A stretch of DNA of 64,000 nucleotides, taken from contig JACPHD010000001.1 in assembly GCA_016188785.1 (NCBI GenBank), forward strand, positions 26,300-90,299, written 5' to 3'. This DNA comes from Parcubacteria group bacterium. Lineage in GTDB: Bacteria > Patescibacteriota > Patescibacteriia > Patescibacteriales > GWC2-42-12. Position numbers and translations under genes: made by a program. Shown here in pieces: positions 22,893 through 45,328 of this stretch (within the stretch, counting starts at the first letter, position 1; each line of letters starts with the position of its first letter). The notes under the pieces are model-generated. The model was not told the origin of the DNA. It saw nothing but the letters and a program-made list of their open reading frames with translations, and did no database searches.

Positions 22893-23295
22893 CGCCGTTA
22901 TTATTTAAAATTTCAGCCGCCCTAATATTATTCTCATTAAGAATTTCTAGTAATGTAATTTCATCAATATCCTTATCTAGCAAATCTAATTTTAGTTTTG
23001 TAGAGAAAATAACATACTCTTTAATGCTTTTTTCAAAAGTCTTTTCTGATAAATTATCATAATTTGTTTTTGCATGTGCTTGAATTATCCACTCGTCATT
23101 TCCTATTATTTCTTTATAGACTAAATTTATAAAATCTTCGTTTTCTTTTGGACGGTTAAGTTTTTTTAATAAATCTTTTTTTATACCATTCCATTTGTCT
23201 AAAACATCTGTTCTTCCTTTATTTTTAGATAAAACAAGACCATCATTTTTTAAATCATAAAAGACAACTTTGTTGTTATTATGAGGTTTATTTGT
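22876..23295 (-). pseudogene. Met-less 140-codon ORF, in-frame continuation of the upstream RM gene after a TAA
   Basis: Translation after the TAA at 23296-23298 reads TNKPHNNNKVVFYDLKNDGL...NNGDDYED with no stop until it overlaps the S-subunit start. Confidence 0.5.
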
Positions 23296-24858
23296 TTAAA
23301 AAACTGCTATGGCGGTATGCGTTGAGGCATTTGGTTGAAATAACTCAATCGGCATATTAATAACATATTTTAATGTGTGTTTTGATAAAATTCTATTTCT
23401 ATCAATATCATCTTTAAAATATGTGGAGAGCGGGGCAATTATAACCCCGTATCTACTAGAATTATCTAGCATCTTTTCTAAAAATTGAATTTCTTTTTTA
23501 GTGGGATTTTTTTTATTATCTTTACCGCCATACGGAGGATTTACAAATCCTATTGTAGGTTTATTCGGTAACTTATTTAAAATATTGTTTGTTTCATTTG
23601 AGAAAAAATCTTCATTAAAAATTTGAGATTTTCCATCTCCCCTAAAAAGCATGTTAGAAATCGCCAATGAATACATTGTACTACTTTTTTCAAGTCCAAT
23701 CAGTTGTTTGGTTTTTATATTTTTAATTCTTTCTTTTTTATCTGATAAATTTGATTTTTCAATTTCATCAACAAGTTTATTCATTCCCGCGATTAAAAAC
23801 GCCCCCGTTCCGCAAGCCGGATCAAAAATTACATCGTTTGTCTTAATATCAATTAATTCTGTAAATAAAGTAGTGATATGATTTGGAGTTAATATAATTC
23901 CTTTTTTTACACTTGTTATCCCCGCGTATCTTAAAAATTCTTCATAAAATTTTCCTATTATATCGTATGAAGTTTTTTTATCAAAAAGAGGTATTACTTT
24001 TTCTTCAAGTTCTTTTAAAATATCTTTTAAAATATTTGTGGAATTTAAATCATTATCAGTTTTTATAAAAGTTAATTCATTGGTTAATACCTCTATCTTA
24101 TTTTTATCAATTTTCTCACTTTCTAAAATATCGCTTATGGTCGTAGGCATATTTCTAATAATTGTTTGGGTATTCCATAAACTATAACTATTTTTAAAAT
24201 CTGACCCGCTATCTTTTGGGTATAGACAAATCATTAAAGCGCTTAAAAGCACCGGTCTTTTTTGAGAATCTAAGTTTCTTAACAACCTATTGATTTCGCT
24301 TGATGATTTTGAAATATCATTAGATATTTTTTCTAAATCAATGTTCTCAAAAAAAGCTAAATAATCTTCTTCGTCTAAAATTTCACTCTTACTAATATTT
24401 TGAATAAAGTTATTTTCAATAATATAAGTATCAAGTCTATGATTATATTCATCATTAATATCTCCAGAAAAAGCAATTCCTACTATTTTCCAATTTTTTA
24501 AATATTTTTTTATTGTTTCTTTTTCTTGACTTAATTTTTCGCTTGTGAAAAAAGATAAATAATGTTTTATTCCGTCAACGGCAAAATCCACAGGATCATC
24601 TTCATTTTTAGAAACATGGTTTTTTATTTGATCTTTATTTTCAATTAAAATCAATAATTTTTTTATTTCATTTACATAAATCAAATCCGGATAACCATGT
24701 TTTCCAGTTTCTTTTTTGCTTGTTTTATCTAAAATTTCTTGAATATATTTATTATTTTGTTTCTGGACATTCCAGCTATTAGTATACCGCCTATTCTCTT
24801 TAATAAAATTAAATAGATTAATATCTGTTTTTGCTTCGTTTTTTCTCAAATTTGCCAT
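23296..24858 (-). CDS. Type IIB/IIG (BcgI-A-like) restriction-modification subunit: N-terminal PD-(D/E)xK nuclease plus gamma-class N6-adenine MTase
   Basis: 'YPDLIYVNEIKKLLILIENKD' (PD...ENK). MTase motif I 'FDPACGTGAFLIAG', motif IV 'NPPYGG'. Confidence 0.7.
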   Translation of the reverse strand: MANLRKNEAKTDINLFNFIKENRRYTNSWNVQKQNNKYIQEILDKTSKKETGKHGYPDLIYVNEIKKLLILIENKDQIKNHVSKNEDDPVDFAVDGIKHYLSFFTSEKLSQEKETIKKYLKNWKIVGIAFSGDINDEYNHRLDTYIIENNFIQNISKSEILDEEDYLAFFENIDLEKISNDISKSSSEINRLLRNLDSQKRPVLLSALMICLYPKDSGSDFKNSYSLWNTQTIIRNMPTTISDILESEKIDKNKIEVLTNELTFIKTDNDLNSTNILKDILKELEEKVIPLFDKKTSYDIIGKFYEEFLRYAGITSVKKGIILTPNHITTLFTELIDIKTNDVIFDPACGTGAFLIAGMNKLVDEIEKSNLSDKKERIKNIKTKQLIGLEKSSTMYSLAISNMLFRGDGKSQIFNEDFFSNETNNILNKLPNKPTIGFVNPPYGGKDNKKNPTKKEIQFLEKMLDNSSRYGVIIAPLSTYFKDDIDRNRILSKHTLKYVINMPIELFQPNASTHTAIAVF

Positions 24859-24945: not shown

Positions 24946-25560
24946 TTAAGCGAATTTTCTAATCACTCCCCTGACCACTCCCTGAATTAGCGGGTCGGCC
25001 GCGTAAATCGGCTTCATGGCTGAATTAGCCGGCTGCAGTCTGATGCGCGCCTGCTCGCGGTAAAATTTTTTCAAAGTGGCATAAGCATTGTTTAAAAGCG
25101 CTACCACCACATCGCCGTTTTGCGGCGACGGATTGCGCTCCACGATTACATAATCGCCGTCTAAAATTCCGTCTTCAATCATTGATTCGCCTTTAACTTT
25201 TAAAACGTAACTATTGGCGCTGTCGGTTACGAAATCAGCCGGCACGGCGATCGTGTCTTGTTCTTCAACCGCTTCGATCGGTTCGCCGGCTGTTATCAGG
25301 CCGACTAACGGCAATTCTAAACTGGCGGTCCAATTCACGGCCGTGGGAATAATTTCAATTGAGCGCGCTTGATTAAACGAAGTTTTTAGCATCTGCTTTT
25401 TCTCCAAAGTTTGCACATGCGCGTGAATCGTGGCCGGACTGGCTAAATTAAAATGCCGGCCGATTTCTCTTAAGCTGGGCGCGTAGCCGTTATCGCGCGT
25501 AAATTCAGTTATAAAATCCAGAATTTGCCTTTGTCTTTTGGTTAAATTGTTGCCCATATA
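24946..25560 (-). CDS. lexA: LexA repressor (HTH plus S24 peptidase)
   Basis: 'ITAG' cleavage site, Ser in 'KGESM', Lys in 'ATLKK'. Start taken at MGNNLTKRQRQIL. Confidence 0.85.
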   Translation of the reverse strand, partial: YMGNNLTKRQRQILDFITEFTRDNGYAPSLREIGRHFNLASPATIHAHVQTLEKKQMLKTSFNQARSIEIIPTAVNWTASLELPLVGLITAGEPIEAVEEQDTIAVPADFVTDSANSYVLKVKGESMIEDGILDGDYVIVERNPSPQNGDVVVALLNNAYATLKKFYREQARIRLQPANSAMKPIYAADPLIQGVVRGVIRKFA

Positions 25561-25597
25561 GTTTATGTTAAAAATTAGTTTTCCACAATACTCTTTT

Positions 25598-25626
25598 ATC
25601 ATACACGAACAAAATACGAAAGTCAA
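25598..25626 (-). promoter_or_regulatory. lexA promoter: TTGACT-N17-TATGAT with direct repeat TTCGTA-N5-GTTCGTG in the spacer (putative operator)
   Basis: Read on the minus strand: TTGACT TTCGTATTTTGTTCGTG TATGAT. Confidence 0.55.
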
Positions 25627-25727
25627 GAGCTTGCGCTATTTTGACTATTTTTTTTATTTATGCTTTAATAAATATTAACTGGCTCTGTCACCTTTTAACT
25701 TCAAAACTCTTAACAGGGGGATGAAAA

Positions 25728-26222
25728 ATGTTAGAGGAAAAAGCGGTAAGAGAGTTCTTTTTAGAAACTAACAAATGGATCTTAGAGGAAAAACCTACTC
25801 CAATAATGAACACGTATTCCTGCTTTTCCCAGGCGCTAATACATAATAATGGCGCGCTTCATTATATGAATGTCTGGACAGAAACAGAAGAAAAGAACGT
25901 TAGTCAGATCATTGGCCAGGTTCTTATCTGGCACCGAAAAAAAGGACCGCTTTGGGGAATGAATTACGACGGTTGGCAAAAGAATGACGAAAAGATAAAC
26001 GATCTGCGGAGCAATCTTCTGATAAAAACTTTATCAGGGGAAAAATATTTTCAACGTTCGGTCTCTGGATCTACAGTTGATGGGTTGTTGTATCAAAACG
26101 AAATAGAAGGAGGATTTCAATTATTTGAAATTAAAACCTCAATTTTTCCTAATAACGACCATGTTAATCCTGTAACCCGCTTCACCTATCACGGCCGCGC
26201 CTTAGTCAACCTCGGTCTCTAA
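25728..26222 (+). CDS. Hypothetical protein
   Basis: 164-aa ORF; no motifs recognised. Confidence 0.35.
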   Translation: MLEEKAVREFFLETNKWILEEKPTPIMNTYSCFSQALIHNNGALHYMNVWTETEEKNVSQIIGQVLIWHRKKGPLWGMNYDGWQKNDEKINDLRSNLLIKTLSGEKYFQRSVSGSTVDGLLYQNEIEGGFQLFEIKTSIFPNNDHVNPVTRFTYHGRALVNLGL

Positions 26223-26323
26223 CCCTTTCTTCCCGCCGGCTTGAACGTTCGGCGGGAATTTTTTTAAAAGAAAAGACTGGACGCGGTTAATAGCATCCAG
26301 TCCTGATTTATTGGCAAGCAAAA

Positions 26324-27811
26324 TTATTTAATGTGCAATTCGGTTACCTTGCGAAAATGATAACCGTTAATAGCCGACTCCACGGCCAAAGGAAATAGAC
26401 GCGGCCGGCAGAATAAAACCCAGGCCAATAGGGCCCAAAATTGCCGCCGTCCACCCGATTCTGCCAACCCCAAATGCCAGCAGGCGCGGAAAAAGGCTAA
26501 AACACGCTGGCAATTGATCGGCTGACTAACTTTCGGAGTTGGAAATTCTCTTAAAAACGTCCTTACCCGCCGGTAGTAATTGGGCGGCGAGTATAAGTAC
26601 TTCATCACGAAACCATAACCGTCGCGCAATACCTTAAAACCCATAAGCGGCACGATGTTGGTACTGCCGTCCACGTTGTCGCCGGACATTTGCCCGGTAA
26701 GCCGGTTAGCCAGCTTAAGCCTCTGCCAAAGCTTAGTGCCATAAGGCGCGCTAAGCATGCCAACCATAGCCATAGTAATACCGCTGCGCATGACAAAGAC
26801 AATCTGGCGATTGAAAATAGTAGCCGGATCATCCGGGTCAAAGCCGACGATAAAACCGCCCATTACTAAAAGGCCGGCCCGCTGTAAAGTTTCCACATCA
26901 GTCGCCAGATTACGCCCCATATTCTGCGTCTTGCGACAGTCTGATAGGGCCGCTTGATTCGGCGTCTCAATGCCGATGAAAACCGAATCAAATCCGGCCT
27001 CCACTATCAGGCTAACTAATTCGTTGTCTTGAGCCAGATTGATAGAAACTTGAGTGAAGAAAGGCGCGCGATAGTTCACTTTTTTTTGCCAAGCAATAAG
27101 CGCCGGCAGAAGTTCAGCCTTGAGACGCTTCTTGTCGCCGATTAAATTGTCATCAACGAAAAACACCTTGCCTCGCCAGCCGGCGGCCCATAATTGGTCA
27201 AGCTCGGCAATTACTTGCCTGGCGGTTTTAACGCGCGGACTATGGCCGAACAGCCGGGTCACGTCGCAGAATTCGCACTGAAACGGACAGCCGCGCGACC
27301 ATTGCACGCTCATGGAAGCGTAAGCCTCCATGTCTAAAAGGTCCCAGCGCGGAATAGCCGCCTGCTCCATGTCAGAAAATTCGCTGGAAGCATAGAGGCG
27401 CTTTAGTCTGCCTTGCGCCAAGTCGGCTAAAAAAAGCGGCAGGGTGATTTCCGCCTCATTAAGCACAAAATGATCCACCGCGGCAAAGGCCTCATGATCA
27501 ACCGTGAACAAGGGGCCGCCGGCCACGATTTTTTTTCCGGCTGAACTACAGCGAGCGATCAGCCGCTCGGCCGATGTTCGCTGTACCGCCATGGCGCTAA
27601 TAAAGACATAGTCAGCCCAATTCAGGTCATCATCAGTTAACGGTTCAACATTCAAATCAACTAAGCGCGCCTGCCAATCCGCGGGCAACATCGCCGCCAC
27701 GGTAATAAGACCAAGCGGCGGAAAAGCCGCCCGTTTGCGGATAAAGCGCAGAGCATACTTAAAACTCCAAAACGTGTCCGGATACTCCGGATAAACCAGT
27801 AAAATTTTCAT
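26324..27811 (-). CDS. B12-binding radical SAM enzyme (class B, CxxxCxxC = CPFQCEFC)
   Basis: N-terminal cobalamin-binding-like domain, rSAM cysteine triad, C-terminal DUF4070-like region. About 55% GC, far above neighbours. AGGAG Shine-Dalgarno. Confidence 0.85.
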   Translation of the reverse strand: MKILLVYPEYPDTFWSFKYALRFIRKRAAFPPLGLITVAAMLPADWQARLVDLNVEPLTDDDLNWADYVFISAMAVQRTSAERLIARCSSAGKKIVAGGPLFTVDHEAFAAVDHFVLNEAEITLPLFLADLAQGRLKRLYASSEFSDMEQAAIPRWDLLDMEAYASMSVQWSRGCPFQCEFCDVTRLFGHSPRVKTARQVIAELDQLWAAGWRGKVFFVDDNLIGDKKRLKAELLPALIAWQKKVNYRAPFFTQVSINLAQDNELVSLIVEAGFDSVFIGIETPNQAALSDCRKTQNMGRNLATDVETLQRAGLLVMGGFIVGFDPDDPATIFNRQIVFVMRSGITMAMVGMLSAPYGTKLWQRLKLANRLTGQMSGDNVDGSTNIVPLMGFKVLRDGYGFVMKYLYSPPNYYRRVRTFLREFPTPKVSQPINCQRVLAFFRACWHLGLAESGGRRQFWALLAWVLFCRPRLFPLAVESAINGYHFRKVTELHIK

Positions 27812-27862
27812 CTGTCTTACTCCTCTTGGTTGTTAGTTAACTCAATATTCCAGCGAACATAA

Positions 27863-28043
27863 TTTGAGATGGTTTCAAAACTCTTTCGTCGCGAAATTTC
27901 AGTTTTTCCGGCGAGACGAGGAAGGCGAGTAAAAAGGATTGAACCGTAATAGAATTACGGCGAAAGCCTTTTTACGAAGCCTGACGAAGTCGCAGCCGAA
28001 AAAATGAAATTGCAGCAGAAATGAGTTTTGAAACCATCTCATT
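27863..28043. mobile_element. MITE-like element with 18-bp perfect terminal inverted repeats GAGATGGTTTCAAAACTC
   Basis: TIRs at 27866-27883 and 28023-28040. Internal hairpin CCGTAATAGAATTACGG. Confidence 0.6.
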
Positions 28044-28151
28044 ATCTTACTAAAATTTAAACTGAACAACAAGGCGGCTGTTATTTATTCAGCTACACTA
28101 AAATAAAGAAGAACGCGCCCTTGGGAATTTATCCGAGGGCGCGAAACTGGT

Positions 28152-28448
28152 CTAGCCATGCCACTTTTTTGCCGTCCTCGGCGGCATTGATGGCTTTGCT
28201 TCTCTTAAAGCTTTAAGAAAGTTTTCCCTTTTTTCTTCGGTTCTTTCAACTATTTCCCGAAGCAGAAAAAATTTTTCTTCAAGCGAAAGTATCACTTGGG
28301 CAAGAGTGAGAAATTGTTCCACCCTTACCAATCTTTCTTGAGAAGACATTGAACGTCCGATAGAAAAAAGAGAAGTTAACTCCGAGCTAACACGGTCAAC
28401 AAATTGGAGCAATTTGTTGACCGTTTCTTCTAATAACCCTTTTTCCAT
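28152..28448 (-). CDS. Hypothetical helical protein
   Basis: 98-aa ORF downstream of the NYN gene. Confidence 0.3.
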   Translation of the reverse strand: MEKGLLEETVNKLLQFVDRVSSELTSLFSIGRSMSSQERLVRVEQFLTLAQVILSLEEKFFLLREIVERTEEKRENFLKALREAKPSMPPRTAKKWHG

Positions 28449-28573
28449 TTTATCTCCCTCCTTGTTCCATAATTATATTATAGCAGAAAAATTATTATTT
28501 TTCCATTAAAATTTTTGATTTTCCCTTTAATTATTTTATGGAAATATTACTTATTTAGCCGTCTTGATAAGAA

Positions 28574-29128
28574 TTATAATGGTAATTTTAAAACAATAAA
28601 TTCCTCTAAGTCATCTTTTATTAATAATCGTGATAACGATGATACTTTCTGCAATGAATAGCAAGGATTATGAGAAAATCCTATATATTCCACATTTTTA
28701 TTTAAATGTTTTACTTTTTTTATCGCTGGGTTTAAATCAGAATCAGATGAAATAATTATAGCCGTATCCCAGATATCGTCATACGCCCCAACCAATAAAT
28801 CAACTGCCAATTTAACATCAACGCCTTTTTCATGATAACCGCCACTGTTAAATAAAAAATTTCCTTTCTTAATAACAAATCCTTGCGCTGTTAAATTATT
28901 AAATAACCTTAACTGATTGGCTCGAAGATTTTGGCCTTTTTGATCGTTGTCTTTAGCTCTAATGGCCCCGACATAATAGCGGCAGGAAATAATTTCCCTG
29001 CCCCTGGCAAGTTTTTTACATAGCCCGACATAACTAAAATTAATAGTGTTAGTAATTTGTAGTTCCTTTAGTTTATGATATAAATTACTGCCATCAATAA
29101 AAACGGCCACTCTTTCATTTATTAACAT
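28574..29128 (-). CDS. NYN-domain (LabA-like) RNase
   Basis: 'VAVFIDGSNLY', 'KGVDVKLAVDLL', 'DTAIIISSDSDL'. Confidence 0.8.
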   Translation of the reverse strand: MLINERVAVFIDGSNLYHKLKELQITNTINFSYVGLCKKLARGREIISCRYYVGAIRAKDNDQKGQNLRANQLRLFNNLTAQGFVIKKGNFLFNSGGYHEKGVDVKLAVDLLVGAYDDIWDTAIIISSDSDLNPAIKKVKHLNKNVEYIGFSHNPCYSLQKVSSLSRLLIKDDLEEFIVLKLPL

Positions 29129-29333
29129 AATATCAAAAACCCACCGTGCCCCCGAAGGGAGCAGAGTGGGTGATTTTAGCTAAATAAAGGAATTTCATCC
29201 ATTTTTCTGCGATACTTCCATGCGATACTTCCAATAGGGTAATACTACTTTAAAAAATTTCACTTGTCAAGACTTATCCACAGATAATATCTATTATAGC
29301 ATAAATTTTTATGATAACGAAATTCAGACATAT

Positions 29334-29897
29334 TTATTTTATTTCATACTCCCAGCCCGGCCGCCACGACTTTGTCTTGCGCCAATCTTGGGCAAAAGCC
29401 TCGGTCCAGGTCTTACCATTCAGTAAAACATCAAGCGCGAGTTGCGGAGCTTTATGCCCTACTATGGCAATATTTTTCCCGTCATAATTTTGCTTTAAAA
29501 AATTAAGAAAATCAGCAATTCGCTTCTTTACATCCTCATAGCTCTCGCCATCAGGAAACTTCTCGGTTATCATTTTTTCTTGCATTGGTTCAACAATACT
29601 GGATGGCTGGTTATTATATTTGCCATAATTACATTCGCGCAAGCGCGCATCAGCAATAATTGGCGTTATGCCCTCAAAAGTCAATTTTGCCGAATCAACC
29701 GCTCTTTTTAAATCAGAACAAAACGCCACGGCAAATTTTTTACCTGCCTGCGCAGGCAGGTCTTTAATTTTATCTTTTAATTCAACTGCCTGTTTTTCGC
29801 CTAATTTAGAAAGTTCAGCATCAAACCAGCCGGATGAAATTTCTTTCTCGTTGTCTATTGTTGTCCCATGAACAAAATAAGTTATTTTTATGGCCAT
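29334..29897 (-). CDS. Histidine phosphatase superfamily (phosphoglycerate-mutase-like)
   Basis: N-terminal 'ITYFVHGTT' RHG-like motif; 'AIVGHKAP'. Confidence 0.7.
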   Translation of the reverse strand: MAIKITYFVHGTTIDNEKEISSGWFDAELSKLGEKQAVELKDKIKDLPAQAGKKFAVAFCSDLKRAVDSAKLTFEGITPIIADARLRECNYGKYNNQPSSIVEPMQEKMITEKFPDGESYEDVKKRIADFLNFLKQNYDGKNIAIVGHKAPQLALDVLLNGKTWTEAFAQDWRKTKSWRPGWEYEIK

Positions 29898-29939
29898 AGC
29901 GATAAAACTTTTTAATTTATTACCCTCTCCGGTTAAACG

Positions 29940-30131
29940 CTAACGTAGCGATAGAAACCATAATGGCTGAAAAAATATGCCAAAATTGCCTTTAGTCAAA
30001 GTACTGCCTAAGCCGGCGCCGTTAGGCCCTAAAAAACCAAACACCTCGCCTTTGCCCACTGAAAAAGAAATATTATCCACGGCCGTAAGCGCGCCGAATT
30101 TTTTAGTTAAATTTTTTACTTCTATTATCAT
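29940..30131 (-). pseudogene. Remnant of the N-terminus of an ABC ATPase gene
   Basis: '[38 protein letters not shown]' then a frameshift: Walker A broken ('GAGLGSTL'). Confidence 0.5.
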
Positions 30132-30253
30132 AGAAGCATCATAGCATTAACCAATTAAAGCTGGCAAAATCTATTGCCCTAATTACTGCCATGAGGTAAA
30201 ATGAAAAATAACAAAGGTCGGGAAAAATAAATTTATAATAATTTACAAATCAT

Positions 30254-30727
30254 ATGCTTAAAAAACTAACTATTTCAACATTAAGCCTGGCTCTGGCGGC
30301 CAGTTTGTCTTTGCCGGCCTTAGCCGAGGTTGACTATTCGGTCGCAACTTCGACTAATACAAAAAACGCGGCCGTAAAAGTCTGTAACCAAGCCTTTACT
30401 GCGGCAGTTAAAGCGGCCAACCAGACCTATAAAGCCGCGGTTAAAACGGCTAATGACGCTTATAAAACAGCTATTAAAGCCGCGGCTGACGCCCATAAAA
30501 CCGCAGTTCAAGCGGCCAATGACGCTTTTAAGGCTTCGGCCAAAACCAAAGATGACAAAGACGCTCTAAAAACCTCTAAAGCAGACGCTAAAAAAGCCCT
30601 TACTAAAGCGCTCAAAGATGCTAAAACCGCTCGCGGCGCGGCTCTAAAAACTGCTCGTGAAACGCAAAAAGCGGCTAAAAAAACCGCGGCCGACACCTTA
30701 AAAACCTGCCGCCAGAGCGCTAAGTAA
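30254..30727 (+). CDS. Secreted Ala/Lys-rich repetitive helical protein
   Basis: Signal peptide 'LSLALAASLSLPALA'. Repeats of 'AxKxAxxxYKxA'. Confidence 0.6.
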   Translation: MLKKLTISTLSLALAASLSLPALAEVDYSVATSTNTKNAAVKVCNQAFTAAVKAANQTYKAAVKTANDAYKTAIKAAADAHKTAVQAANDAFKASAKTKDDKDALKTSKADAKKALTKALKDAKTARGAALKTARETQKAAKKTAADTLKTCRQSAK

Positions 30728-30782
30728 TTGGCGATTCGCAAACTATAACAAAAATACCGGCTATAAAATCGGTTTGGCCATA

Positions 30783-31556
30783 TTATTTTATCAAAATTAT
30801 GGTGTGGCCTTCGGCATAACTATCGTCGCCCACATTCTCAATCGTATTCCAATCGCCCCACAGCTCCATGGCTTTGCCTACGTTAAAAGATTCTTCATTA
30901 AAGATCCAATGTTTTTTGTTGTCCGCGCCGATAGCGTAAATTTTTTGCGAAGACGGATTTTTGATAAGTTTCATAAGATTATTGCTAGTTATTATTGAAC
31001 TATTATATTCGCTGACTATGTCTTTAAGCAATTGCTCATAGGTGCGTCCGCTGGCCGCTAAGCCGCTTTTCGGGTCGGTTTTACGCGCCGGATCTAAAAT
31101 AAAATGCCCGGCCACGGCCGTGGCTGGATTTAACTTGAACTTATAGCAGACATAAGCCAAGACCCAGACATATCTTTTGTAGCTTTCAGCCGCGTTAATA
31201 TTAGAGCCATAGCAATATTCCACGCCGATGGCCGCGTCATTAGCGTCATAACCGTATAGTTCATTGTCTTTACTTACATTATATAGAACCTGCCAGGCTT
31301 TTTCCGGTTTGTCGCTCGTCAGGGCCGGAATGCATTCAATGATTTCTTTGTCATCGGTAAAAATATGGGCCGAGGCGTTAGCGTCATTGGCGGTTCTTTC
31401 ATAATATGCCACGTTGCCGGCCGCGGTTGAGTTGGGATTGCCCGTGTCATGCGCCACGACGAATTTAACGCCAGGAGATATTAAGAGACCTGACCGGCGG
31501 TTGGTATTATTAGTAAGATATCTGGTTATAATTGGGTATTTTTGTTTAAAGCTCAT
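30783..31556 (-). CDS. N-acetylmuramoyl-L-alanine amidase (Amidase_2/PGRP-type, lysin-like) with a C-terminal extra domain
   Basis: 'VVAHDTGNP', 'ASAHIF', 'GHFILDPARKTDP'. Confidence 0.7.
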   Translation of the reverse strand: MSFKQKYPIITRYLTNNTNRRSGLLISPGVKFVVAHDTGNPNSTAAGNVAYYERTANDANASAHIFTDDKEIIECIPALTSDKPEKAWQVLYNVSKDNELYGYDANDAAIGVEYCYGSNINAAESYKRYVWVLAYVCYKFKLNPATAVAGHFILDPARKTDPKSGLAASGRTYEQLLKDIVSEYNSSIITSNNLMKLIKNPSSQKIYAIGADNKKHWIFNEESFNVGKAMELWGDWNTIENVGDDSYAEGHTIILIK

Positions 31557-31590
31557 AAATTATTGTGTTAATTTGCTAGTATTTTATGAA

Positions 31591-31760
31591 TTAGCTCGAA
31601 CTGAATTCAAAAAAAGGTTTTAAACCAGCTTTTAAAAGCAAGAAATTCATTCACGGGCAAAGCCCGACTTTAGGCGACCGCGCCCGCCTTGACGCCGCAA
31701 GGCAGTCGGGCGGGTTTCAAGTTTTGGCGGCAAATTTTTTTAACACTAGGGCTTTTCAGT
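31591..31760 (+). repeat. ~170-bp repeat family, copy A
   Basis: 'GAATTAGCTCGAAC(T/C)GAATT(C/T)AAAAAAAGGTTTTAAAC...' is shared with 34360-34580 and, inverted, 39745-39972. Confidence 0.7.
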
Positions 31761-31840
31761 TACAATTATAAACTTTTTTAAATCATCAACTGGGATAATT
31801 CTTTGTATATCCGAATGATAGATCATGCTATTTGTCGGTT

Positions 31841-32212
31841 TTAATTCCTCTCTGTGGCTAATTTAACATCAATACCTTTAGCTAAAATATTTTGATAATC
31901 TTTAAAGCGATCGTCAACTTTAACAGTTTCTGTTCTGGTTCTAAGCTTACTGGTTTTAATAGTCCAACCGTAACTTTCCAGGGTGTTAAATAAATATGTT
32001 TGATTTGACATTGCCTTGGTGGTTTCATGATTACCGCCCCTTTCTCTAACGGTCCCAATGTAAAATCTTTTGCCTGGATATGCCAATTCTCTAACGCCAA
32101 TTAAAAATTTAGCGAATTCATCATAATTAAAATCACTATCATGACAACCAATCCGTTTTAATGCGAGATTATAAAAATTACCGCCGTCAATAAATATTTG
32201 TACTTTGTCCAT
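31841..32212 (-). CDS. NYN-domain protein, probably C-terminally truncated
   Basis: 'VQIFIDGGNFY', 'KGIDVKLAT' then a stop. An SDxxxxxPVDDLKK-like continuation is in another frame. Confidence 0.6.
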   Translation of the reverse strand: MDKVQIFIDGGNFYNLALKRIGCHDSDFNYDEFAKFLIGVRELAYPGKRFYIGTVRERGGNHETTKAMSNQTYLFNTLESYGWTIKTSKLRTRTETVKVDDRFKDYQNILAKGIDVKLATERN

Positions 32213-32315
32213 ATTTTAATGTTACACTGCAAGTAATTTTTTGGCAATAAAAAAACCTGCACACCACCCCGAAGGGCAGGCGCAGGCGACTTCTATAATT
32301 ATTATAGCAAAATGC

Positions 32316-33660
32316 CGGCGCGTGTCAATGGTTTGCACTCGTCCATGTCATACTTAACACCAGGGAGTGCAAAATATGTTAAACCATAGTAATATCTGTA
32401 GATTTGGCCATTTAAGCCAAACTAAAGCTACAGATATTATGCAAACACAAGCTGAAATAAAATTAAACCCTTTGCGGTGTTATCTTTCGCCGGAGGCGAA
32501 AAAAAGATTAAAATGGATGTATCTTGTAAAATACGAATGTGCCAATAATATTTCGCAGGCGGCCAACCGCCTCGGCATTTCTCGCGTCTGGCTGTCTCAA
32601 ATTCACAGCCGCTGGCAGAAACATCGCGAAGACCCCAGGAGTCTGGAGCCGGAGTCAAAAGCGCCGCATGACACGAGCAACCGTAAACGGATTGATGAAA
32701 AAGTTGAAAATAAAATTGTTGAAATCAGAAAAAAATACCAGCCCTGGGGCAAAGACAAATTATCGGTCATTTTAAAAAGGGATTATCAATTAATGGCCGG
32801 AGCCTCCACCGTCAATCGCTATCTCGTAAAACATAACCTGATTGATCCGAAACTATCCGAGAAAAATAAACTGGCCTGGCAGAGAAAAAAAGAAAAGGCA
32901 AATCTGAAATTTAAAATGAGGCCGCCGGCGGTAATCAAAGATTACAAACCCGGGGCGCTCTTAGAAAAAGACATGAAATTAGTCCTGAAAATGGGTATAT
33001 TCACTAACATGAATAAGCATCGCGCTAAAGAAAACTTCTGGTATCAGCATACCTTAATTGATTCTTTTACCCGCGTCAGAGCCGTTGGTTTAGCCGAGGA
33101 TTCTAACAGCCAAACAGCGGTAGCGGTTCAGGAGCAGGCGGTAAGCCGCCTGCCCTTCGCCATCGCGGCGATAAACAACGACAACGGCGGTGAGAATGAA
33201 AAAGATTTCTCTGTTTATCTGGAAAAAGAAAAAGTGGCTCAATTTTTTTCCCGCGCCGGCACGCCGACAGATAACCCGCGTGTTGAACGCTCTCATCTAA
33301 CGGACGAACTGGAATTTTACGCCCAAGGCAATCTGCATAAAAATTTTAACGATCAGGCTAAGGCAATATCAGAATGGGAACACACTTACAATTTCGTCCG
33401 GCCGCATCAGGCTCTCGGCTATCTAACACCCATGGAATTTTACAGGCTCTGGCAGAAAAACCCCGAAGAGGCCCATCGGATTAAAAATAAATACAGCGCT
33501 TATCTTAAAAAACAAAGTCGTCGTTTGGCTAAATCCAGACAAATGAAAAACAAGGAACAAATTGAAAATCTAATGAAATTTATTGATAAAAAATTGTCAA
33601 AATCTAATTCTTAAAAGTGTTAATTATGTTCGTGGACTTGAACATGTTATCAATGTTAAA
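32316..33660 (+). mobile_element. IS481-like insertion sequence (approximate ends, imperfect TIRs)
   Basis: Left end 'TGTCAATGG...CATACTTAACAC' versus right end 'GTGTTAATTATG...CATTGATAACA' gives partial inverted identity. Higher GC than the flanks. Confidence 0.45.
32367..33614 (+). CDS. DDE transposase (rve integrase core, IS481-like) with N-terminal HTH
   Basis: 'ISQAANRLGISRVWL' HTH. rve core '...NDNGGENEKDF...', 'RPHQALGYLTPMEFY'. Confidence 0.8.
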   Translation: MQNMLNHSNICRFGHLSQTKATDIMQTQAEIKLNPLRCYLSPEAKKRLKWMYLVKYECANNISQAANRLGISRVWLSQIHSRWQKHREDPRSLEPESKAPHDTSNRKRIDEKVENKIVEIRKKYQPWGKDKLSVILKRDYQLMAGASTVNRYLVKHNLIDPKLSEKNKLAWQRKKEKANLKFKMRPPAVIKDYKPGALLEKDMKLVLKMGIFTNMNKHRAKENFWYQHTLIDSFTRVRAVGLAEDSNSQTAVAVQEQAVSRLPFAIAAINNDNGGENEKDFSVYLEKEKVAQFFSRAGTPTDNPRVERSHLTDELEFYAQGNLHKNFNDQAKAISEWEHTYNFVRPHQALGYLTPMEFYRLWQKNPEEAHRIKNKYSAYLKKQSRRLAKSRQMKNKEQIENLMKFIDKKLSKSNS

Positions 33661-33716
33661 TTTGCTTTTCTCTATATCATCGTCATTATTAAGGTTTTTA
33701 ACCACTAAAAATACTT

Positions 33717-34286
33717 TTATTTTATCCTGAAAATTTCCTTGATTTTATTAACATTTTCTTTGGCCGCGAAAAAAGCTTCAATAAAAGCTGATTTAGGTAT
33801 CATTCTGCCTTCTAAGGCTTCTCTCTTTTTCGTAAAATCCCAGGCAATTATTGGATCCTGGTATATATAGAATATCACAACCGGCCGCGAATGGTCTAAC
33901 GATCTTTTAACATTTTTATAAGAAACATCATACTTGGAAAACGTCCCATCAACTATCGCCTCTAATTTCTTGGCGAGAATATGGTCATACAGCTTTTCAA
34001 CTCCAATTGAAGAAGCACCTTGGACAACATCAGAATTCTTACCATTATATTGAGGCATAATTTCTTTGATTTCATCGGCGTCGATCCTAACTAATTTCTT
34101 ATCCAATATTTTGGCTAAATTTTTAGAGAATTCGGTCTTGCCCGCCCCCGGCGAACCGGCCATAAAAATAGTAACTGGATTTACAATCGATTTATAAAAA
34201 TCAGGCTTAGCAAATTTTTCAATTAACAACTTTCTATTTTTCTTTATAAATTTTTTTGCTTCTTCCGCTTCTTTAATATTTATCAT
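33717..34286 (-). CDS. Zeta-toxin/AAA_33-like P-loop kinase
   Basis: Walker A 'MAGSPGAGKT'. 189 aa. Confidence 0.55.
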   Translation of the reverse strand: MINIKEAEEAKKFIKKNRKLLIEKFAKPDFYKSIVNPVTIFMAGSPGAGKTEFSKNLAKILDKKLVRIDADEIKEIMPQYNGKNSDVVQGASSIGVEKLYDHILAKKLEAIVDGTFSKYDVSYKNVKRSLDHSRPVVIFYIYQDPIIAWDFTKKREALEGRMIPKSAFIEAFFAAKENVNKIKEIFRIK

Positions 34287-34359
34287 GCTTTTATTATATC
34301 ATAAAATAATAAAAATATTAAAGAAACCAAAATATCACTTTATATTGGGAGCTTTGCTC

Positions 34360-34580
34360 AAGTTGGCTGGCATTTTACGAATTAGCTCGAACCGAATTTA
34401 AAAAAAGGTTTTAAACTATCTTTTAAAAGCGCCTCTGCCGGCAGGCAGGCGCCCCCGCTTTTAAAAGCAAACATTTTCCCGCGGGCAAAGCCCGATTTCA
34501 GGCGATTTCAAGTTTTTCTGCAGGCGAAAGCCCTCTCCGCCCCGCTTCTGCTGGGCGATTTGGCGGCAAATTATTTTTTG
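34360..34580 (+). repeat. ~200-bp repeat family, copy B (left flank of the R-M module)
   Basis: Begins 'AAGTTGGCTGGCATT' (like the tRNA-Gln 3' end). Core is near-identical to the inverted copy C. Confidence 0.75.
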
Positions 34581-34613
34581 TTTTATATCTACATTTGGAA
34601 CTAAGATTATAAA

Positions 34614-36131
34614 TTAATAATTGATAATTGGAAAACCTCTTGAACTTAAGATATTATTGAACTCTTTTCGAAATAAGAATACCGCGTTTTTTCTTTCTTT
34701 CTTGTAAAGAGTATTCACAAAAGGGTCAAAATCCCAATTCGTGTATTCTGGCGTAGCAAGTTTACTTTTCATAAATTTTTTAATACCAACAGCCTGCATT
34801 ATTTGCACTATTTCCTCGAATTCACGAATACCACATAAGGAATAAGGCATTTCTTCTAACCACTCTTTAGGCAATCCATTTTGTCTTAATTTTTCTATGA
34901 CTTTATTTTTTATTTCTTGGTAAATAGGATCTGCAAATGAATACCACTCCTCTAATGTCAAAATAACTGGATAAATTTCCCTTTTTTTGTCATATGGAAA
35001 ACTTGGATACTGTTTATCTATATGATCTTTTATGGTTTTATAAACCTGAACTATCGCATCAGAAATCTTTTCAAGTTCTTTGTCTAATAATAAAGTATCA
35101 TTTAATTCTATTTTTGCTGGTACAATTAGCCTTTTTGTCTTACATTCAATAAATAATGCGGCATCTTTTTCGTCTAATATCCAATCAACCGTATTTTTTT
35201 TATTTTTCTTCGGCCCATATTCTTCTTCGGGATAAATTGTCATTTTCTTATTGGCTTTATTTAATACCTCGCCAACATATTTCTGGAAAGTAAATCCAAA
35301 AGGTTTGTCAAAATCTTTTTCGCGACAAATCTCATAATAAATTCCGCTGGTAAACCGCCAATATAATAAAGTAGTCAATGGACAAAAGTAAACATTATCT
35401 CCTTTTAATTTATTTTTTATTATTGGGTATAATCTTAACATATAAGTATTATAAGCAAATTTTTCATCAACTGAGTGTTCACTTTGTATAATTTTTTTAA
35501 AATCATCCAGATCAATAGAAATTATGTTAAATAATTTTTTTATCTCATCATTAGTTATCCCTTTTATATTCGTACTAAATGGTTCTTTGATGATAAAATT
35601 ATTCTTGTAATGACCAAGTAGTGATGCGCCCATTAAAAATAAATTTTCGTAGTGTAAGCCGACTTTTTTATATAATATTTTATCAATGTCCAGTTCGTTA
35701 AAAATTCTATAATATCTATAAAAATACATGAGATTAATATTTAATTGCCACGGGAACTGTCTATGCGCAAGTCTAAACAATTCCTTTAAAACATTATTTT
35801 TATCAACATGACATAATTTATTTTCAATTTCCTTGATTTTATTTATTGCGCCAATAAAGTAATTCCATTTTTTTAATGTTTCCAATCCCTTTTCAGTATC
35901 TTGCGAATTAAGTATAATTTCACGCAATAAAAGTTCTAATTCCCATTGGTAAATCCTTTTTTCAGGTAAAGTTTTTGCATTAATAAATTCTGGTATAGTC
36001 TCGATATCGTTAGGAAACGAATTTCCAAATTGCAGATGGTTCGAATAAGCCCATATTACACAAAATGATTCATTTATGCTAAGTTTTCTTAAATGATTTT
36101 TCAATGGTTTGTATAATGAGTAATTATCCAT
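34614..36131 (-). CDS. Hypothetical protein with a possible PD-(D/E)xK motif (LDEKDAALFIECKTK)
   Basis: 505 aa, divergent from the LexA-MTase gene with an 88-bp shared promoter region. Confidence 0.4.
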   Translation of the reverse strand: MDNYSLYKPLKNHLRKLSINESFCVIWAYSNHLQFGNSFPNDIETIPEFINAKTLPEKRIYQWELELLLREIILNSQDTEKGLETLKKWNYFIGAINKIKEIENKLCHVDKNNVLKELFRLAHRQFPWQLNINLMYFYRYYRIFNELDIDKILYKKVGLHYENLFLMGASLLGHYKNNFIIKEPFSTNIKGITNDEIKKLFNIISIDLDDFKKIIQSEHSVDEKFAYNTYMLRLYPIIKNKLKGDNVYFCPLTTLLYWRFTSGIYYEICREKDFDKPFGFTFQKYVGEVLNKANKKMTIYPEEEYGPKKNKKNTVDWILDEKDAALFIECKTKRLIVPAKIELNDTLLLDKELEKISDAIVQVYKTIKDHIDKQYPSFPYDKKREIYPVILTLEEWYSFADPIYQEIKNKVIEKLRQNGLPKEWLEEMPYSLCGIREFEEIVQIMQAVGIKKFMKSKLATPEYTNWDFDPFVNTLYKKERKNAVFLFRKEFNNILSSRGFPIINY

Positions 36132-36153
36132 AATATTTATAAAATTAAATGTT

Positions 36154-36182
36154 TTGACTTCGGTAAATCTTCGGTATATACT
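36154..36182 (+). promoter_or_regulatory. Promoter of the LexA-MTase gene: TTGACT-N17-TATACT with direct repeat CTTCGGTA-N3-CTTCGGTA in the spacer
   Basis: Read directly; same architecture as the lexA promoter at 25598-25626. Confidence 0.6.
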
Positions 36183-36219
36183 ATAAATATAACATGTGGA
36201 TAAATAATGTCAAATAACT

Positions 36220-38712
36220 ATGCCTACTCTAACGAAGAGACAAAAGCAAATTTTAGACTTCATTCGTGAGTATATTAATAAACATAATATATCCCCTACC
36301 TTTGAAGAAATTAAAAAACATTTTAGATTATCTGCGCTATCTACCGTACATCAGCATATTGAAGCATTAATCAAAAAGGAATTTTTAGTAAAAAATAATA
36401 ACTTATCAAGAGGACTCGAGTTAAAAACAAAAGGGGAAGACATAGTTGAAATTCCTTTACTCGGCGTGATTGCTGCTGGTCAACCGATCGAAGTCTTTGA
36501 AGAACACGAGACTATAACCGTTCCGCGCACCAATTTATCTAACGCCGGTGAACATTTCGCATTGAAAGTACAAGGCAATTCCATGATTGATGAAGGAATT
36601 TTTAATGGCGATACTGTAATTATCAGAAAACAAAATACGGCCAGCAACGGAGAAACTATAGTGGCTATAATAAATGGCAATGAAGCGACATTAAAAAAGA
36701 TATATAGATTTCAAAATGGTTTTAGGTTACAACCGGCGAACCCAGAAATGAAACCGATCTTTGTAAAAAGTTTGCTTGTCCAAGGTAAAGTTGTAAGTGT
36801 TATAAGAAACTTTGAAAACAATACTATCATTGAACAAATTTCTAGCAATGAAGAATATATTGTTTCCAAAGAATATTCGGAAAAAGGTATAAATTTAGAT
36901 CAGCTCATAAGTGAGCTGGTAAATTTTAGAGATATTATAATATTTAAATACGGCTTTAATACAGCAGATGATTTTTTAAAAACACAAATTATTGACGGCT
37001 TAATTCTACAAGAAATTTTTAAGCACATCGCAAATAAAAAAAATGTAAATACTAACATCCAAGCAATAAACGAAATACTGAAAGAACTAAACCTAAATCA
37101 TGTAGAATTTACAAAGGATGATATAAAAATTTTTGGGGATATTTTAAAAAAATACAATTTTAGTAGCTGCGATGATGATGTGCTTGGTTTTATATATCAA
37201 AGCATTAGGCCCCAGAGTGGCAGAAAAGATGATGGCCAATATTACACCCCCAAAAAAGTAGTTAAATATATTTTAAATAATGTAAAAATAAATTTAAAAG
37301 AAAACAAAAATTTAAAAATTTTAGACCCAGCCTGTGGATCCGGACAATTTTTGCTGGAAACATACGATATTTTGTATAACCAATACAAAACAATGGGTGA
37401 AAAAAACGAAGCGGACATCCATTACAAAATCATTAATAATCACTTACTTGGCTTTGATATAGATAAAATCGCCGTGAGTTTGGCTAAACTTAATTTATTT
37501 CTAAAATCAAAAGGTACGTATACAGAAAAATTTAATATTTTAATAACAAATACGCTTAAGCGAGATTCTAACTTACTAGAACCAAATCAATTGGACAAAT
37601 ACAAAGGCAGTATTGATTTTGTAGTGGGCAACCCTCCCTGGGGAGCAAATTTAAATGAAGAACAAAAAAAATATTATAAAAAGCATTATGATATAGGAAA
37701 AAATGGATTAAACACATTTACTCTTTTTATTGAACGTGCTTTTGATTTTCTTAAAAAAAATGGAAAATTAGGATACTTAATACCTGAGGCCTATCTAAAA
37801 ATTAAAGTGCACCAACTTTCTCGCCTGCAAATATTAAATAGAGCCAAGATACTACTCCTTGGAATTAGCGGGGATATATTTCAAAAAGTTTACGCTCCTT
37901 GTTTAGTAATAATTTTCCAACAAGAAAAAGATAAAACAGCCAGGGAAAAAAATGAAATAAATATAGAAAATGGAGTTTTCAACGGACATGAAGAACATAA
38001 GACGATAATTCAAAAAAATTTTGAAAAATCCGCTGAAAATATTTTTAACATCAACCAAGTCGGCGAAACTGAAGAAATACTAAACCATATCCTTGAACAA
38101 AAAAATTATTATCTTAAAGATAACGCATTATTTATATTAGGTATCGTAACCGGTAACAATAAAAAGTATCTAATCCGAGAAAAGAAAGACAATAAATATT
38201 CCCCTATTATAGTGGGCAAAGATATAAGCAAATATAAAATCAACTTCAGCGGCAATTATTTTATCTATGACAAAAACATACTCCAGCAAATTGCTCCGAA
38301 AGAATATTATACCGTACCTGAAAAAATTATTTACAAGTTTATTGGAGAAAAAATCACATTTGCTTATGACGATAAACAATATTTTACTTTAAACAATGCT
38401 AATGCATTCGTGCCTAAAATAGAAAAAATAAAAACCAAATATATTTTGGCCTTATTAAATTCAAAATTGATGCAATTTTTTTACAATAAATCTTTTTTTA
38501 CCGTAAGAGTACTCCGTGGCAATTTAGAAAAATTGCCTTTAGTTTACGCGGATCAAAAAAAACAAGAACAAATTATCAGCCTAGTTAATCAAGCAATAAA
38601 TTCAGAAGAAGATAGAATACTAAAAATAATTTTAGACAAAATTGACGACGAGGTATTCTCTCTTTATAAAATATCAAAAAAGTGGCAACAATATATTTGT
38701 AAAGAGACATAA
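36220..38712 (+). CDS. Fusion protein: complete LexA (HTH plus S24 peptidase) fused to a gamma-class N6-adenine DNA methyltransferase with a C-terminal TRD
   Basis: aa 1-200 are LexA-like ('VIAAGQPIE', 'QGNSM', 'ATLKK'), a close paralogue of the lexA at 24946. Then 'LDPACGSGQFLL' (motif I), 'GNPPWG' (motif IV) and ~300 aa TRD. No stop or frameshift between the parts. Confidence 0.8.
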   Translation: MPTLTKRQKQILDFIREYINKHNISPTFEEIKKHFRLSALSTVHQHIEALIKKEFLVKNNNLSRGLELKTKGEDIVEIPLLGVIAAGQPIEVFEEHETITVPRTNLSNAGEHFALKVQGNSMIDEGIFNGDTVIIRKQNTASNGETIVAIINGNEATLKKIYRFQNGFRLQPANPEMKPIFVKSLLVQGKVVSVIRNFENNTIIEQISSNEEYIVSKEYSEKGINLDQLISELVNFRDIIIFKYGFNTADDFLKTQIIDGLILQEIFKHIANKKNVNTNIQAINEILKELNLNHVEFTKDDIKIFGDILKKYNFSSCDDDVLGFIYQSIRPQSGRKDDGQYYTPKKVVKYILNNVKINLKENKNLKILDPACGSGQFLLETYDILYNQYKTMGEKNEADIHYKIINNHLLGFDIDKIAVSLAKLNLFLKSKGTYTEKFNILITNTLKRDSNLLEPNQLDKYKGSIDFVVGNPPWGANLNEEQKKYYKKHYDIGKNGLNTFTLFIERAFDFLKKNGKLGYLIPEAYLKIKVHQLSRLQILNRAKILLLGISGDIFQKVYAPCLVIIFQQEKDKTAREKNEINIENGVFNGHEEHKTIIQKNFEKSAENIFNINQVGETEEILNHILEQKNYYLKDNALFILGIVTGNNKKYLIREKKDNKYSPIIVGKDISKYKINFSGNYFIYDKNILQQIAPKEYYTVPEKIIYKFIGEKITFAYDDKQYFTLNNANAFVPKIEKIKTKYILALLNSKLMQFFYNKSFFTVRVLRGNLEKLPLVYADQKKQEQIISLVNQAINSEEDRILKIILDKIDDEVFSLYKISKKWQQYICKET

Positions 38713-39349: not shown

Positions 39350-39564
39350 AAAAAATAGCTAATTTGTTTTTTATATAAACCCGCAAAATTTTTTAATTCA
39401 ATAATATCTATTCTCTGCTCACCGGCCTCAACTTTAGAAACATAAGACTGAGGTTTTTTTGTTTTTTCCGATACCTCTTTCTGGGTTAAACCCGCATCTA
39501 ATCTGGCCTGTTTAAGGAGTCCTATAACTCGTTGATATTCACTTGTTCGTATTGTTTTAGGCAT
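39346..39564 (-). CDS. XRE-family HTH protein, likely R-M controller (C protein)
   Basis: 72-aa HTH_3-like 'LTQKEVSEKTKKPQSYVSKVE', overlapping the downstream nuclease gene. Confidence 0.6.
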   Translation of the reverse strand: MPKTIRTSEYQRVIGLLKQARLDAGLTQKEVSEKTKKPQSYVSKVEAGEQRIDIIELKNFAGLYKKQISYFL

Positions 39565-39577
39565 TTATATATTATAT

Positions 39578-39607
39578 ATTCAAATCAAGAATATTCAAAG
39601 TTTGAAT
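39578..39607 (-). promoter_or_regulatory. Tandem C-box-like palindromes ATTCAAAGTTTGAAT (perfect) and ATTCAAATCAAGAAT (imperfect) upstream of the C gene
   Basis: Read directly, 14-45 nt upstream of the XRE start codon. Confidence 0.55.
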
Positions 39608-39972: not shown

Positions 39973-39988
39973 AATAAGCCTAAAATTT

Positions 39989-45320: not shown

Positions 45321-45328
45321 AAAAACAC

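Follow-up and report, generated by a model that had tools for sequence, protein, structure and literature searches.

A probable pair of self-regulating LexA-operator systems, one of them carried by a LexA-methylase fusion, in a Parcubacteria genome

Can two LexA-type genes of one bacterium share a promoter plan and still answer to different repressors? The question is raised by a stretch of 64,000 nucleotides (nt) from a Parcubacteria group bacterium (GenBank assembly GCA_016188785.1, contig JACPHD010000001.1, positions 26,300 to 90,299), which we call the window throughout. It harbors a housekeeping lexA gene and a second gene whose product joins a complete LexA to a DNA methylase. A first-pass annotation had proposed that one operator common to both genes would place the methylase of this restriction-modification (R-M) system in the LexA regulon, or make it a decoy or competitor of LexA. 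We suggest another answer. All observations together are probably best explained by a type II R-M system whose regulatory methylase represses itself and is equipped with a probably damage-cleavable LexA, plus a self-repressed host lexA; in other words, by two separate LexA-operator pairs on one promoter plan.

The plan itself can be read from the sequence. The lexA promoter runs on the minus strand from 25626 to 25598 as TTGACT-TTCGTATTTTGTTCGTG-TATGAT, with the -35 hexamer at 25626-25621, a 17-nt spacer and the -10 hexamer at 25603-25598. The promoter of the fusion gene, on the plus strand at 36154-36182, reads TTGACT-TCGGTAAATCTTCGGTA-TATACT, again with a spacer of 17 nt, and both reach 10/12 in a consensus scan. 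Inside each spacer lies a repeat with a period of 11 nt, composed of TTCGTA and TTCGTG at lexA and of two exact copies of the 8-mer CTTCGGTA at the fusion gene. Coordinates, shared -35, spacer length and direct repeat all agree with the first-pass annotation, and its proposal that the repeat occupies the expected autoregulatory position, in a plan common to the two LexA-type genes, holds at both sites. The window alone is nevertheless weak proof, because the bare pattern TTCG-N7-TTCG is not enriched in its 64 kb (3 seen vs 3.8 expected); GAAC-N4-GTTC is uninformative over the same length (1 seen vs 0.4 expected). It is conservation across loci that decides.

The housekeeping gene (24946-25557, minus strand, its ATG at 25557 set by homology) encodes 203 amino acids (aa) with the Pfam domains LexA_DNA_bind and Peptidase_S24. 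Its product clears the cut-off of the NCBIfam lexA equivalog TIGR00498 (191 bits vs 111) and has more than 7,900 homologues, the best 120 of which, at 76-100% identity, are named LexA in records of Patescibacteria/Falkowbacteria. Around relatives of this gene we examined 80 loci from species-representative genomes, 69 of them patescibacterial, and read 110-300 nt upstream. Of the 69 patescibacterial loci, about 60 have the tandem repeat [G/T]TTC-N7-[G/T]TTC ahead of lexA, where it usually fills the -35/-10 spacer. The form present in the window, TTTCGTATTTTGTTCGTG (25604-25621, minus strand; a direct repeat of period 11), returns identically or nearly so in the nearest relatives (loci L001-L004 and L016), and the remaining chief forms are GTTCGGTTTTTGTTCGGT, TTTCGGTTAACTTTCGGT and, in Uhrbacteria, GTTCTATTTTTGTTCTAT. 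We derived a matrix from 56 sites at orthologous lexA genes, with the three nearest relatives omitted; its consensus is GTTCGATTTTTGTTCGGT, with two tandem GTTC half-sites 11 nt apart from start to start. When this matrix was scanned over 128,000 window positions, the best score (15.5 bits) fell on lexA's own site, a local variant TTTCGTA...GTTCGTG within the GTTC-N7-GTTC geometry.

The repeat is not confined to lexA. In two relatives (L021 and L022) Y-family translesion polymerase genes are immediately preceded by the box GTTCTATTTTTGTTCTAT, which scores 25.7 bits, and in L024 lexA is followed on the same strand by an 88-aa open reading frame (ORF) and a Y-family polymerase gene. Because the repeat is both conserved at lexA and present before Y-family polymerase genes, we regard it as an SOS box. 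The first-pass annotation had made its case depend on conservation in orthologous promoters and on enrichment at SOS genes elsewhere in the genome; the repeat is conserved, and in relatives it recurs at a further class of SOS genes, so both points speak for the finding.

A direct-repeat LexA motif has reportedly been attributed to Patescibacteria by Sanchez-Osuna et al. (2017). That a direct repeat is foreign to LexA, as the first-pass annotation supposed from the palindromic canonical boxes, is not so. Boxes of the form GTTC-N7-GTTC are established for Alphaproteobacteria (PMC4951493; PMC8565304), and recognition of direct repeats by LexA is stated to have evolved several times (PMC7739468, with a study of the patescibacterial SOS response among the sources cited). 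The patescibacterial lexA box shares with the alphaproteobacterial one its tandem half-sites, the 11-nt period and the overlap with the lexA promoter, and at the housekeeping lexA of the window there is no essential difference between them. Placement at translesion polymerase genes is a further likeness to the known direct-repeat boxes. Judged by its letters, the lexA operator is of a known kind, a further instance of the tandem GTTC-type box in Patescibacteria.

The second gene (36220-38712, plus strand) encodes a protein of 830 aa in which Pfam recognizes LexA_DNA_bind (residues 1-65), Peptidase_S24 (79-192), N6_Mtase/Eco57I (319-606) and TaqI_C (662-774). Its layout is thus a DNA-binding domain (aa 1-70), an S24 domain (aa 75-198) and a gamma-type N6-adenine methylase with a TaqI-like target-recognition domain (aa ~260-830). 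Residues 1-198 alone clear the TIGR00498 cut-off (179 bits vs 111), the C-terminal part matches the PADLOC profile MTase_II (E 4.5e-106), and the LexA module shares 44% identity with host LexA across 198 aa. From the alignment with host LexA we predict self-cleavage at Ala86-Gly87 (codons 36475-36480, plus strand) and catalysis by Ser121 (36580-36582) and Lys159 (36694-36696, both plus strand). Host LexA and fusion alike possess the Ala-Gly site and the Ser/Lys dyad; none of 38 fusion proteins departs from G87, S121 or K159, and A85/A86 are nearly invariant. By its domains the fused repressor is a complete LexA, and with these cleavage residues conserved it is probably inducible by DNA damage.

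Such a protein is no isolated accident. When 1.8 billion cluster representatives were searched and the matches examined with Pfam, we found LexA modules 58-63% identical to that of our fusion joined to the unrelated methylase family PF01555 (P0308, P0337 and P0364), as well as modules of this kind on other Eco57I-type architectures. As related LexA modules sit on unrelated methylase families, the fusion must be considered recurrent; that unrelated methylases have captured the module repeatedly suggests that the combination of LexA and methylase is under selection. In the searchable literature we found no published description of a LexA-methylase fusion, which may exist elsewhere, and LexA is absent from a review of R-M biology published in 2025.

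Which repressor, then, would act at the fusion promoter? In the simplest case there is one shared regulon: host LexA binds both promoters, the methylase is an ordinary SOS gene, and the fused LexA is redundant or serves dimerisation or damage-triggered cleavage. The common promoter plan with its -35, 11-nt period and TTCG core would fit this idea, and so would a DnaA-box-like nonamer, discussed below, that stands at +34 and +37 from the operator in the lexA and fusion promoters, respectively. The host-lexA matrix places the fusion site CTTCGGTAAATCTTCGGT 11th of the 128,000 positions, or 4th without the spacer columns, and by its sequence the fusion operator clearly belongs to the same motif family as the host box. 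Yet its score is 6.2 bits, as opposed to 15.5 for lexA's own site, and the penalties come from the C preceding each TTC and from the A-rich spacer. The operator itself, CTTCGGTAAATCTTCGGTA (36158-36176, plus strand), consists of the exact 8-mer twice with period 11. Its half-sites CTTC...CTTC fit the direct-repeat geometry and depart from GTTC in the first base, and the spacer within the repeat is A-rich here, whereas lexA, with half-sites TTCGT[A/G], has a T-rich one. Within the window TTCGGT-N5-TTCGGT is unique to this operator.

More telling is how the operator varies among relatives. We read the promoters of 20 distinct loci with full-length LexA-methylase fusions and found that most of them have a repeat of period 11 at the corresponding point of the promoter. 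Its letters vary according to which recognition helix the fused DNA-binding domain carries. Helix SALSTVHQH[IV]EAL, found in the window, L085 and L176, goes with the operator (C/T)TTCGGTAAAT, and CTTCGGTAAAT accompanies this class in all three. In L086, L087, L161, L163 and L175 the helix is [RK]A[IV]GTIHEH and the operator is of the type TTTCGGGAAA[CT], with TTTCGGGAAA(C/T)TTTCGGG replacing the window type. Helix ASVST.. (L084, L090, L091) is paired with TTTCTAT / TTCTAG, and SSLS[ST]VHYHL with TTCGA/TTCTA repeats in L165 and L173 and with only a degenerate repeat in L081 and L174. Helix VSNQSV is accompanied by the palindrome CCCGAC-N6-GTCGGG in L131 (2930-3060) and probably in L147. Both operator geometries, direct repeat and palindrome, hence occur inside one fusion family.

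The methylase does not predict the operator type, but the class of the DNA-binding domain does so in 8/8 distinct loci (9/9 with the near-duplicate L162). The classes SALSTVHQH and [RK]A[IV]GTIHEH are each found on both methylase backbones, one of ~827-830 aa and the other of ~888-892 aa, which are mutually 26-28% identical. L085 and L176, with the same DNA-binding-domain class as the window and methylases only 26-28% identical to its own, carry an operator near-identical to that of the window. For L085 the DNA-binding domain is 90% identical to that of the window and the methylase 28%; for L161 the corresponding values are 54% and 84%. Comparison by blastn gives the same picture at the nucleotide level. 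The match of L085 to the window is limited to 36142-36817, covering promoter, DNA-binding domain and S24, while L161 and L164 share with it the sequence from 36484 and 36469, respectively, to 39355, minus the cassette segment. Because these matches break at the hinge (~36470-36484) and at the S24/methylase junction (~36817), we conclude that promoter, operator and DNA-binding domain move as one cassette. Blastn and the per-domain identities place this mosaic unit at 36142-36483 on the plus strand of the window.

Host LexA proteins follow a helix-class code as well. Helix ASPSTVH[AVTL]H occurs with GTTCTAT-type sites (21/21 read GTTC[T/C].., two of them with GTTCGAT as second half-site), SSPATIH[AS]H with TTCGTG (6/6), and H[EDQ]H mostly with TTCGG[T/G]. 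In the window, TTCGTA/TTCGTG goes with host LexA (HAH) and TTCGGT with the fusion (HQH), each as the class of the protein predicts. Domain content, conservation of the repeat, covariation of operator and DNA-binding domain, and the mosaic cassette are all seen on direct comparison of sequences. A site intended for host LexA would have no reason to track the fused DNA-binding domain across methylase backbones, and the code pairs TTCGGT with the fusion helix and TTCGT[A/G] with that of the host. We therefore consider a single shared regulon rather unlikely. The operator common to both genes that the first-pass annotation envisaged gives way to two kinds, differing in half-sites and spacers, and the one at the fusion gene follows the fused domain. 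This points to two separate self-regulating LexA-operator pairs rather than membership in the host regulon. From position, conservation and covariation together, an operator for the fused domain in its own methylase promoter is strongly implied.

The other idea of the first-pass annotation was that the fusion acts on the host. It could occupy SOS boxes as a decoy or competitor, form mixed dimers through S24 or soak up RecA bound to single-stranded DNA (ssDNA), and so retune the host SOS response to the benefit of the R-M system. The relatedness of the S24 domains (44% identity holds over the entire LexA module) and the cleavage residues found in both proteins would be in line with it. However, apart from lexA's own box there is none of host type in the window to compete for: the matrix scan detected no second strong one there, the next scores being 10.8, 10.5 and 9.8 bits, and two of these lower-scoring sites (31927 and 38552) were placed, both within coding sequence. 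In the window the operator type of the fusion is in turn confined to its own promoter. Further, S24 domains of the fusions are 64-87% identical to each other, closer than the module is to host LexA, which suggests a separate dimer family. No data call for the mechanism, and we regard it as very improbable.

A possible course of events under two self-regulating pairs is as follows. Housekeeping LexA would repress its own gene, since the patescibacterial SOS box fills the -35/-10 spacer and bound LexA would block RNA polymerase. The methylase of a type II R-M system would have acquired a complete LexA as N-terminal regulatory module, whose dimer would limit synthesis of the enzyme by binding its own CTTCGGTA-N3-CTTCGGTA within the methylase promoter spacer. 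DNA damage, including breaks from self-restriction, would produce RecA-ssDNA and trigger cleavage at Ala86-Gly87, by which the DNA-binding domain is cut off. The promoter would then be derepressed, and more methylase would be made while repair creates unmodified DNA. Lying just downstream of a predicted promoter that faces the methylase promoter, the operator may also gate the leftward neighbouring genes. Binding, repression, cleavage, induction by damage and the starts of transcription are what we infer here.

Several elements of this scheme have known counterparts. Breaks caused by self-restriction induce the SOS response (PMC3874152). Methylases with a fused N-terminal repressor are known from SsoII, Ecl18kI and EcoRII (PMC12707154, PMC3874152), and the fused helix-turn-helix (HTH) repressors of M.SsoII, M.Ecl18kI and M.EcoRII limit methylase synthesis (PMC12707154). 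In common with them, the present protein has a sequence-specific DNA-binding domain fused in frame to the methylase N-terminus and a site, predicted in our case, in the methylase promoter with an adjacent facing promoter. It differs in that a whole LexA with a self-cleaving S24 domain is fused, so repression should be reversible by damage. Differences also are the direct repeat as operator, the gamma-type N6-adenine enzyme and the recurrence of the module on unrelated methylase families. With a portable operator of its own, the LexA-fused methylase represents a new variation on the theme of regulatory methylases.

Certain points weigh against our reading. Firstly, conservation of S24 residues is no proof of RecA-dependent cleavage. 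Secondly, host LexA might bind the fusion operator as well, the TTCG core and the 11-nt period being common to both and the fusion site ranking 4th without spacer columns. Thirdly, the direct repeat is not universal: L131 and probably L147 have the palindrome in its place, and L164 has an inverted repeat that lies further upstream. Finally, the facing promoter of M.SsoII, M.Ecl18kI and M.EcoRII drives the nuclease gene, whereas here the nuclease belongs to a separate C-controlled operon, and the logic of the system differs.

What the facing promoter might serve is therefore of some interest. In the 5' leader of the fusion gene, at 36213-36186 on the minus strand, lies TTGACA-16-TATATT with an extended TG, which scores 11/12 in the consensus scan. 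It is the best promoter match in the fusion control region, it points at the methylase promoter, and the DnaA-like box sits in its spacer; transcription from it would run leftward through the operator. Among the first 16 fusion loci, 11 have a minus-strand site scoring at least 10/12 in the corresponding position, as do L175 and L176, which gives 13/20; the promoter scan found none at host lexA. The reverse complement of a -35 motif, [AT]GTCAA, is found just ahead of the ATG in nearly all fusion loci. The genes to the left of the control region are variable. L173 has the cyclase and 2TM effector (176-1699) of a cyclic-oligonucleotide-based antiphage signalling system (CBASS), and L165-167 have a CBASS 1TM effector and cyclase (L165:2693-4918). 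These CBASS operons are divergent from the LexA-methylase genes and share with them a control region of 81-82 bp. A DUF4238 gene follows leftward after ~97 bp in L176, a ThsB TIR gene is nearby in L164, and in L169 the neighbour is housekeeping release factor 1. In the window it is a 505-aa ORF (34614-36131, minus strand) with a weak resemblance to the antiphage protein GapS1.

CapH/CapP control of CBASS is an example of damage-responsive control of defence, and the likeness is that damage leads to induction of defence. One could accordingly imagine that the LexA module is, in the manner of CapH/CapP, mainly a damage-sensing repressor of the divergent defence genes, with self-control of the methylase secondary. 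The strong facing promoter in 13/20 loci, with the operator just downstream of its predicted start, and the leftward CBASS, DUF4238, ThsB and GapS1-like genes are in favor of such a role. The left neighbours are, however, not conserved and include a housekeeping gene, the antiphage match of the ORF in the window is below threshold (93 bits for the NCBIfam GapS1 model, cut-off 320), and the facing promoter is a consensus match only. Moreover, the fusion partner is always a methylase, which argues for the methylase as primary cargo. We find this role improbable and keep to self-control of the methylase as its main function. The facing promoter points to variable neighbours other than nucleases, and the nuclease gene lies convergent and downstream, behind the C gene.

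This nuclease is a putative type II restriction endonuclease encoded by a convergent 210-aa ORF (38717-39349, minus strand), recognized from a PD...E-V-K motif and a structure model. A convergent ORF of 210-238 aa accompanies the fusion in 14/14 fusion loci with gene tables, and the motif is invariant. The model is of moderate confidence, with a predicted local distance difference test score (pLDDT) of 67 and values below 50 in the stretch holding D104; every one of the structures it resembles most is a PD-(D/E)xK nuclease, and the restriction enzymes NhoI and PvuII are among them. The nuclease gene start overlaps (ATGA) a gene for a C-protein candidate of 72 aa (39346-39564, minus strand; HTH_3, E 1.5e-11), and an HTH_3 gene of 70-73 aa overlaps the nuclease start also in L163, L165-167, L173, L174 and L176. 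Just upstream of the HTH_3 gene, at 39578-39607 on the minus strand, a candidate C-box consists of two adjacent 15-nt imperfect palindromes, ATTCAAACTTTGAAT and ATTCTTGATTTGAAT. From its sequence the layout is that of a C-protein-controlled type II R-M system with a predicted methylase and a predicted PD-(D/E)xK nuclease. The small HTH_3 gene overlapping the nuclease start and the palindromic box pair just upstream resemble R-M systems of the PvuII type. In textbook C-protein systems the methylase is unregulated or C-regulated; here it carries its own, different repressor, so that there are two regulators in the system. The divergent 505-aa ORF, for which neither Pfam nor PADLOC gave a match, was rejected as nuclease partner: unlike the convergent ORF, it is not conserved beside the fusion.

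Several features mark the island around the module. Inverted repeats of ~135 nt (83-98% matching) at 34338-34470 and 39854-39992 bracket the GapS1-like gene and the entire R-M module, and a third copy at 31570-31686 flanks transposase and zeta-toxin genes. The R-M block abuts a tRNA-Gln gene (40040-40113), with a G+C content of 0.30-0.32 across 34-40 kb; a scan with Rfam yielded tRNA only. Flanking genes are a zeta-toxin gene (33717-34286), an rve-family transposase (32367-33614) and a type IV secretion coupling protein (42774-45335), and the synteny of dnaX and coupling protein beside the R-M module is retained in L163 and L164. On the side of host lexA, a type I-like hsdM (520 aa) and hsdS occupy 21894-24858 between lexA and a Zincin_1 gene, with a G+C content of 0.27. 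This hsdM may be truncated, for the methylase domain of its product extends up to the C-terminus yet matches only the first ~230 positions of a 311-position profile. In relatives (L001, L002, L003 and L077) the Zincin_1 gene comes directly after lexA. For this reason we take the 3-kb hsdM/hsdS block for an insertion and reject an SOS-controlled lexA-hsdM-hsdS operon.

The second element common to both control regions is the nonamer mentioned above. At lexA it reads TGTGGAAAA (25579-25587, minus strand; 34 nt downstream of the operator start) and has one difference from the DnaA-box consensus TTATCCACA; at the fusion gene TGTGGATAA (36195-36203, plus strand; 37 nt downstream of the operator start) is its exact reverse complement. 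The window contains three copies of TGTGGAWAA, two at the lexA and fusion promoters and the third at 29274-29282 on the minus strand. Upstream of lexA, 55/69 loci have it within 300 nt, and 58 of the 83 copies present in 404 kb fall into this interval. The distance from the operator is not more than 70 nt in 53/62 lexA loci, which form three positional classes, and 16/20 distinct fusion promoters contain the exact motif. With three copies in 64 kb and such concentration upstream of lexA, we rejected TGTGGATAA as a general promoter element. Nor is it part of every SOS promoter, as there is none near the polymerase-gene boxes in L021 and L022 (two cases only).

We regard the nonamer as a candidate DnaA site on the strength of its letters; the literature searched gave nothing relevant on TTATCCACA in Patescibacteria. 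A precedent for joint control by DnaA and LexA is E. coli uvrB, where a consensus DnaA box likewise lies beside LexA sites in one promoter region (PMC6015884). Here the genes are lexA and LexA-methylase fusions, and the pairing is kept across a phylum-level group. The third copy in the window, within a region at 29215-29300 on the minus strand, adjoins the upstream side of a TTGACA-17-TAGTAT promoter of an NYN-domain gene (28574-29128). It is followed by a different exact tandem repeat, GGAAGTATCGCA-T-GGAAGTATCGCA, whose period is 13 and at which some further regulator may bind. In L024 four TGTGGAWAA/TTATCCACA boxes are clustered within 230 nt (L024:4950-5190). This cluster was rejected as an origin because of its coding context: it spans the 3' end of a gene for a Y-family polymerase and part of an HTH_17 gene.

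Control of R-M by DNA damage is known in another form. In restriction alleviation of type I systems HsdR is degraded by ClpXP (PMC12707154). There, too, self DNA comes to be better protected once damage has occurred, by proteolysis and not by transcription; the LexA-methylase would induce modification instead. A wider reading, which we can offer only tentatively, is that in Patescibacteria a clade of LexA modules was captured repeatedly by unrelated R-M methylases, each time with its promoter-operator cassette. It would form a damage-cleavable switch, thrown by RecA-ssDNA arising for instance from self-restriction or attack by phage, and would induce the methylase and, by way of the facing promoter, adjacent defence operons such as CBASS, with the DnaA-like box tying lexA and the modules to replication status. 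If this is true, such a switch would be the transcriptional, type II counterpart of restriction alleviation.

Taken together, the comparison bears on the biology of Patescibacteria in several ways. Public annotation labels these fusions of 800-900 aa 'transcriptional repressor LexA', which would mislead reconstruction of the SOS regulon in this group. Conservation of the DnaA-like box beside lexA offers a separate lead on coupling of replication and SOS in organisms with very few regulators. Matched repressor-operator pairs of at least five helix classes represent a natural series for working out how LexA reads a direct repeat. We know of no earlier case of an R-M methylase that carries a self-cleaving SOS repressor. 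If our assumptions are true, the dosage of the methylase, and possibly neighbouring defence genes of CBASS type, would be linked directly to DNA damage, and type II systems would gain a route to shield self DNA after damage or autoimmunity.

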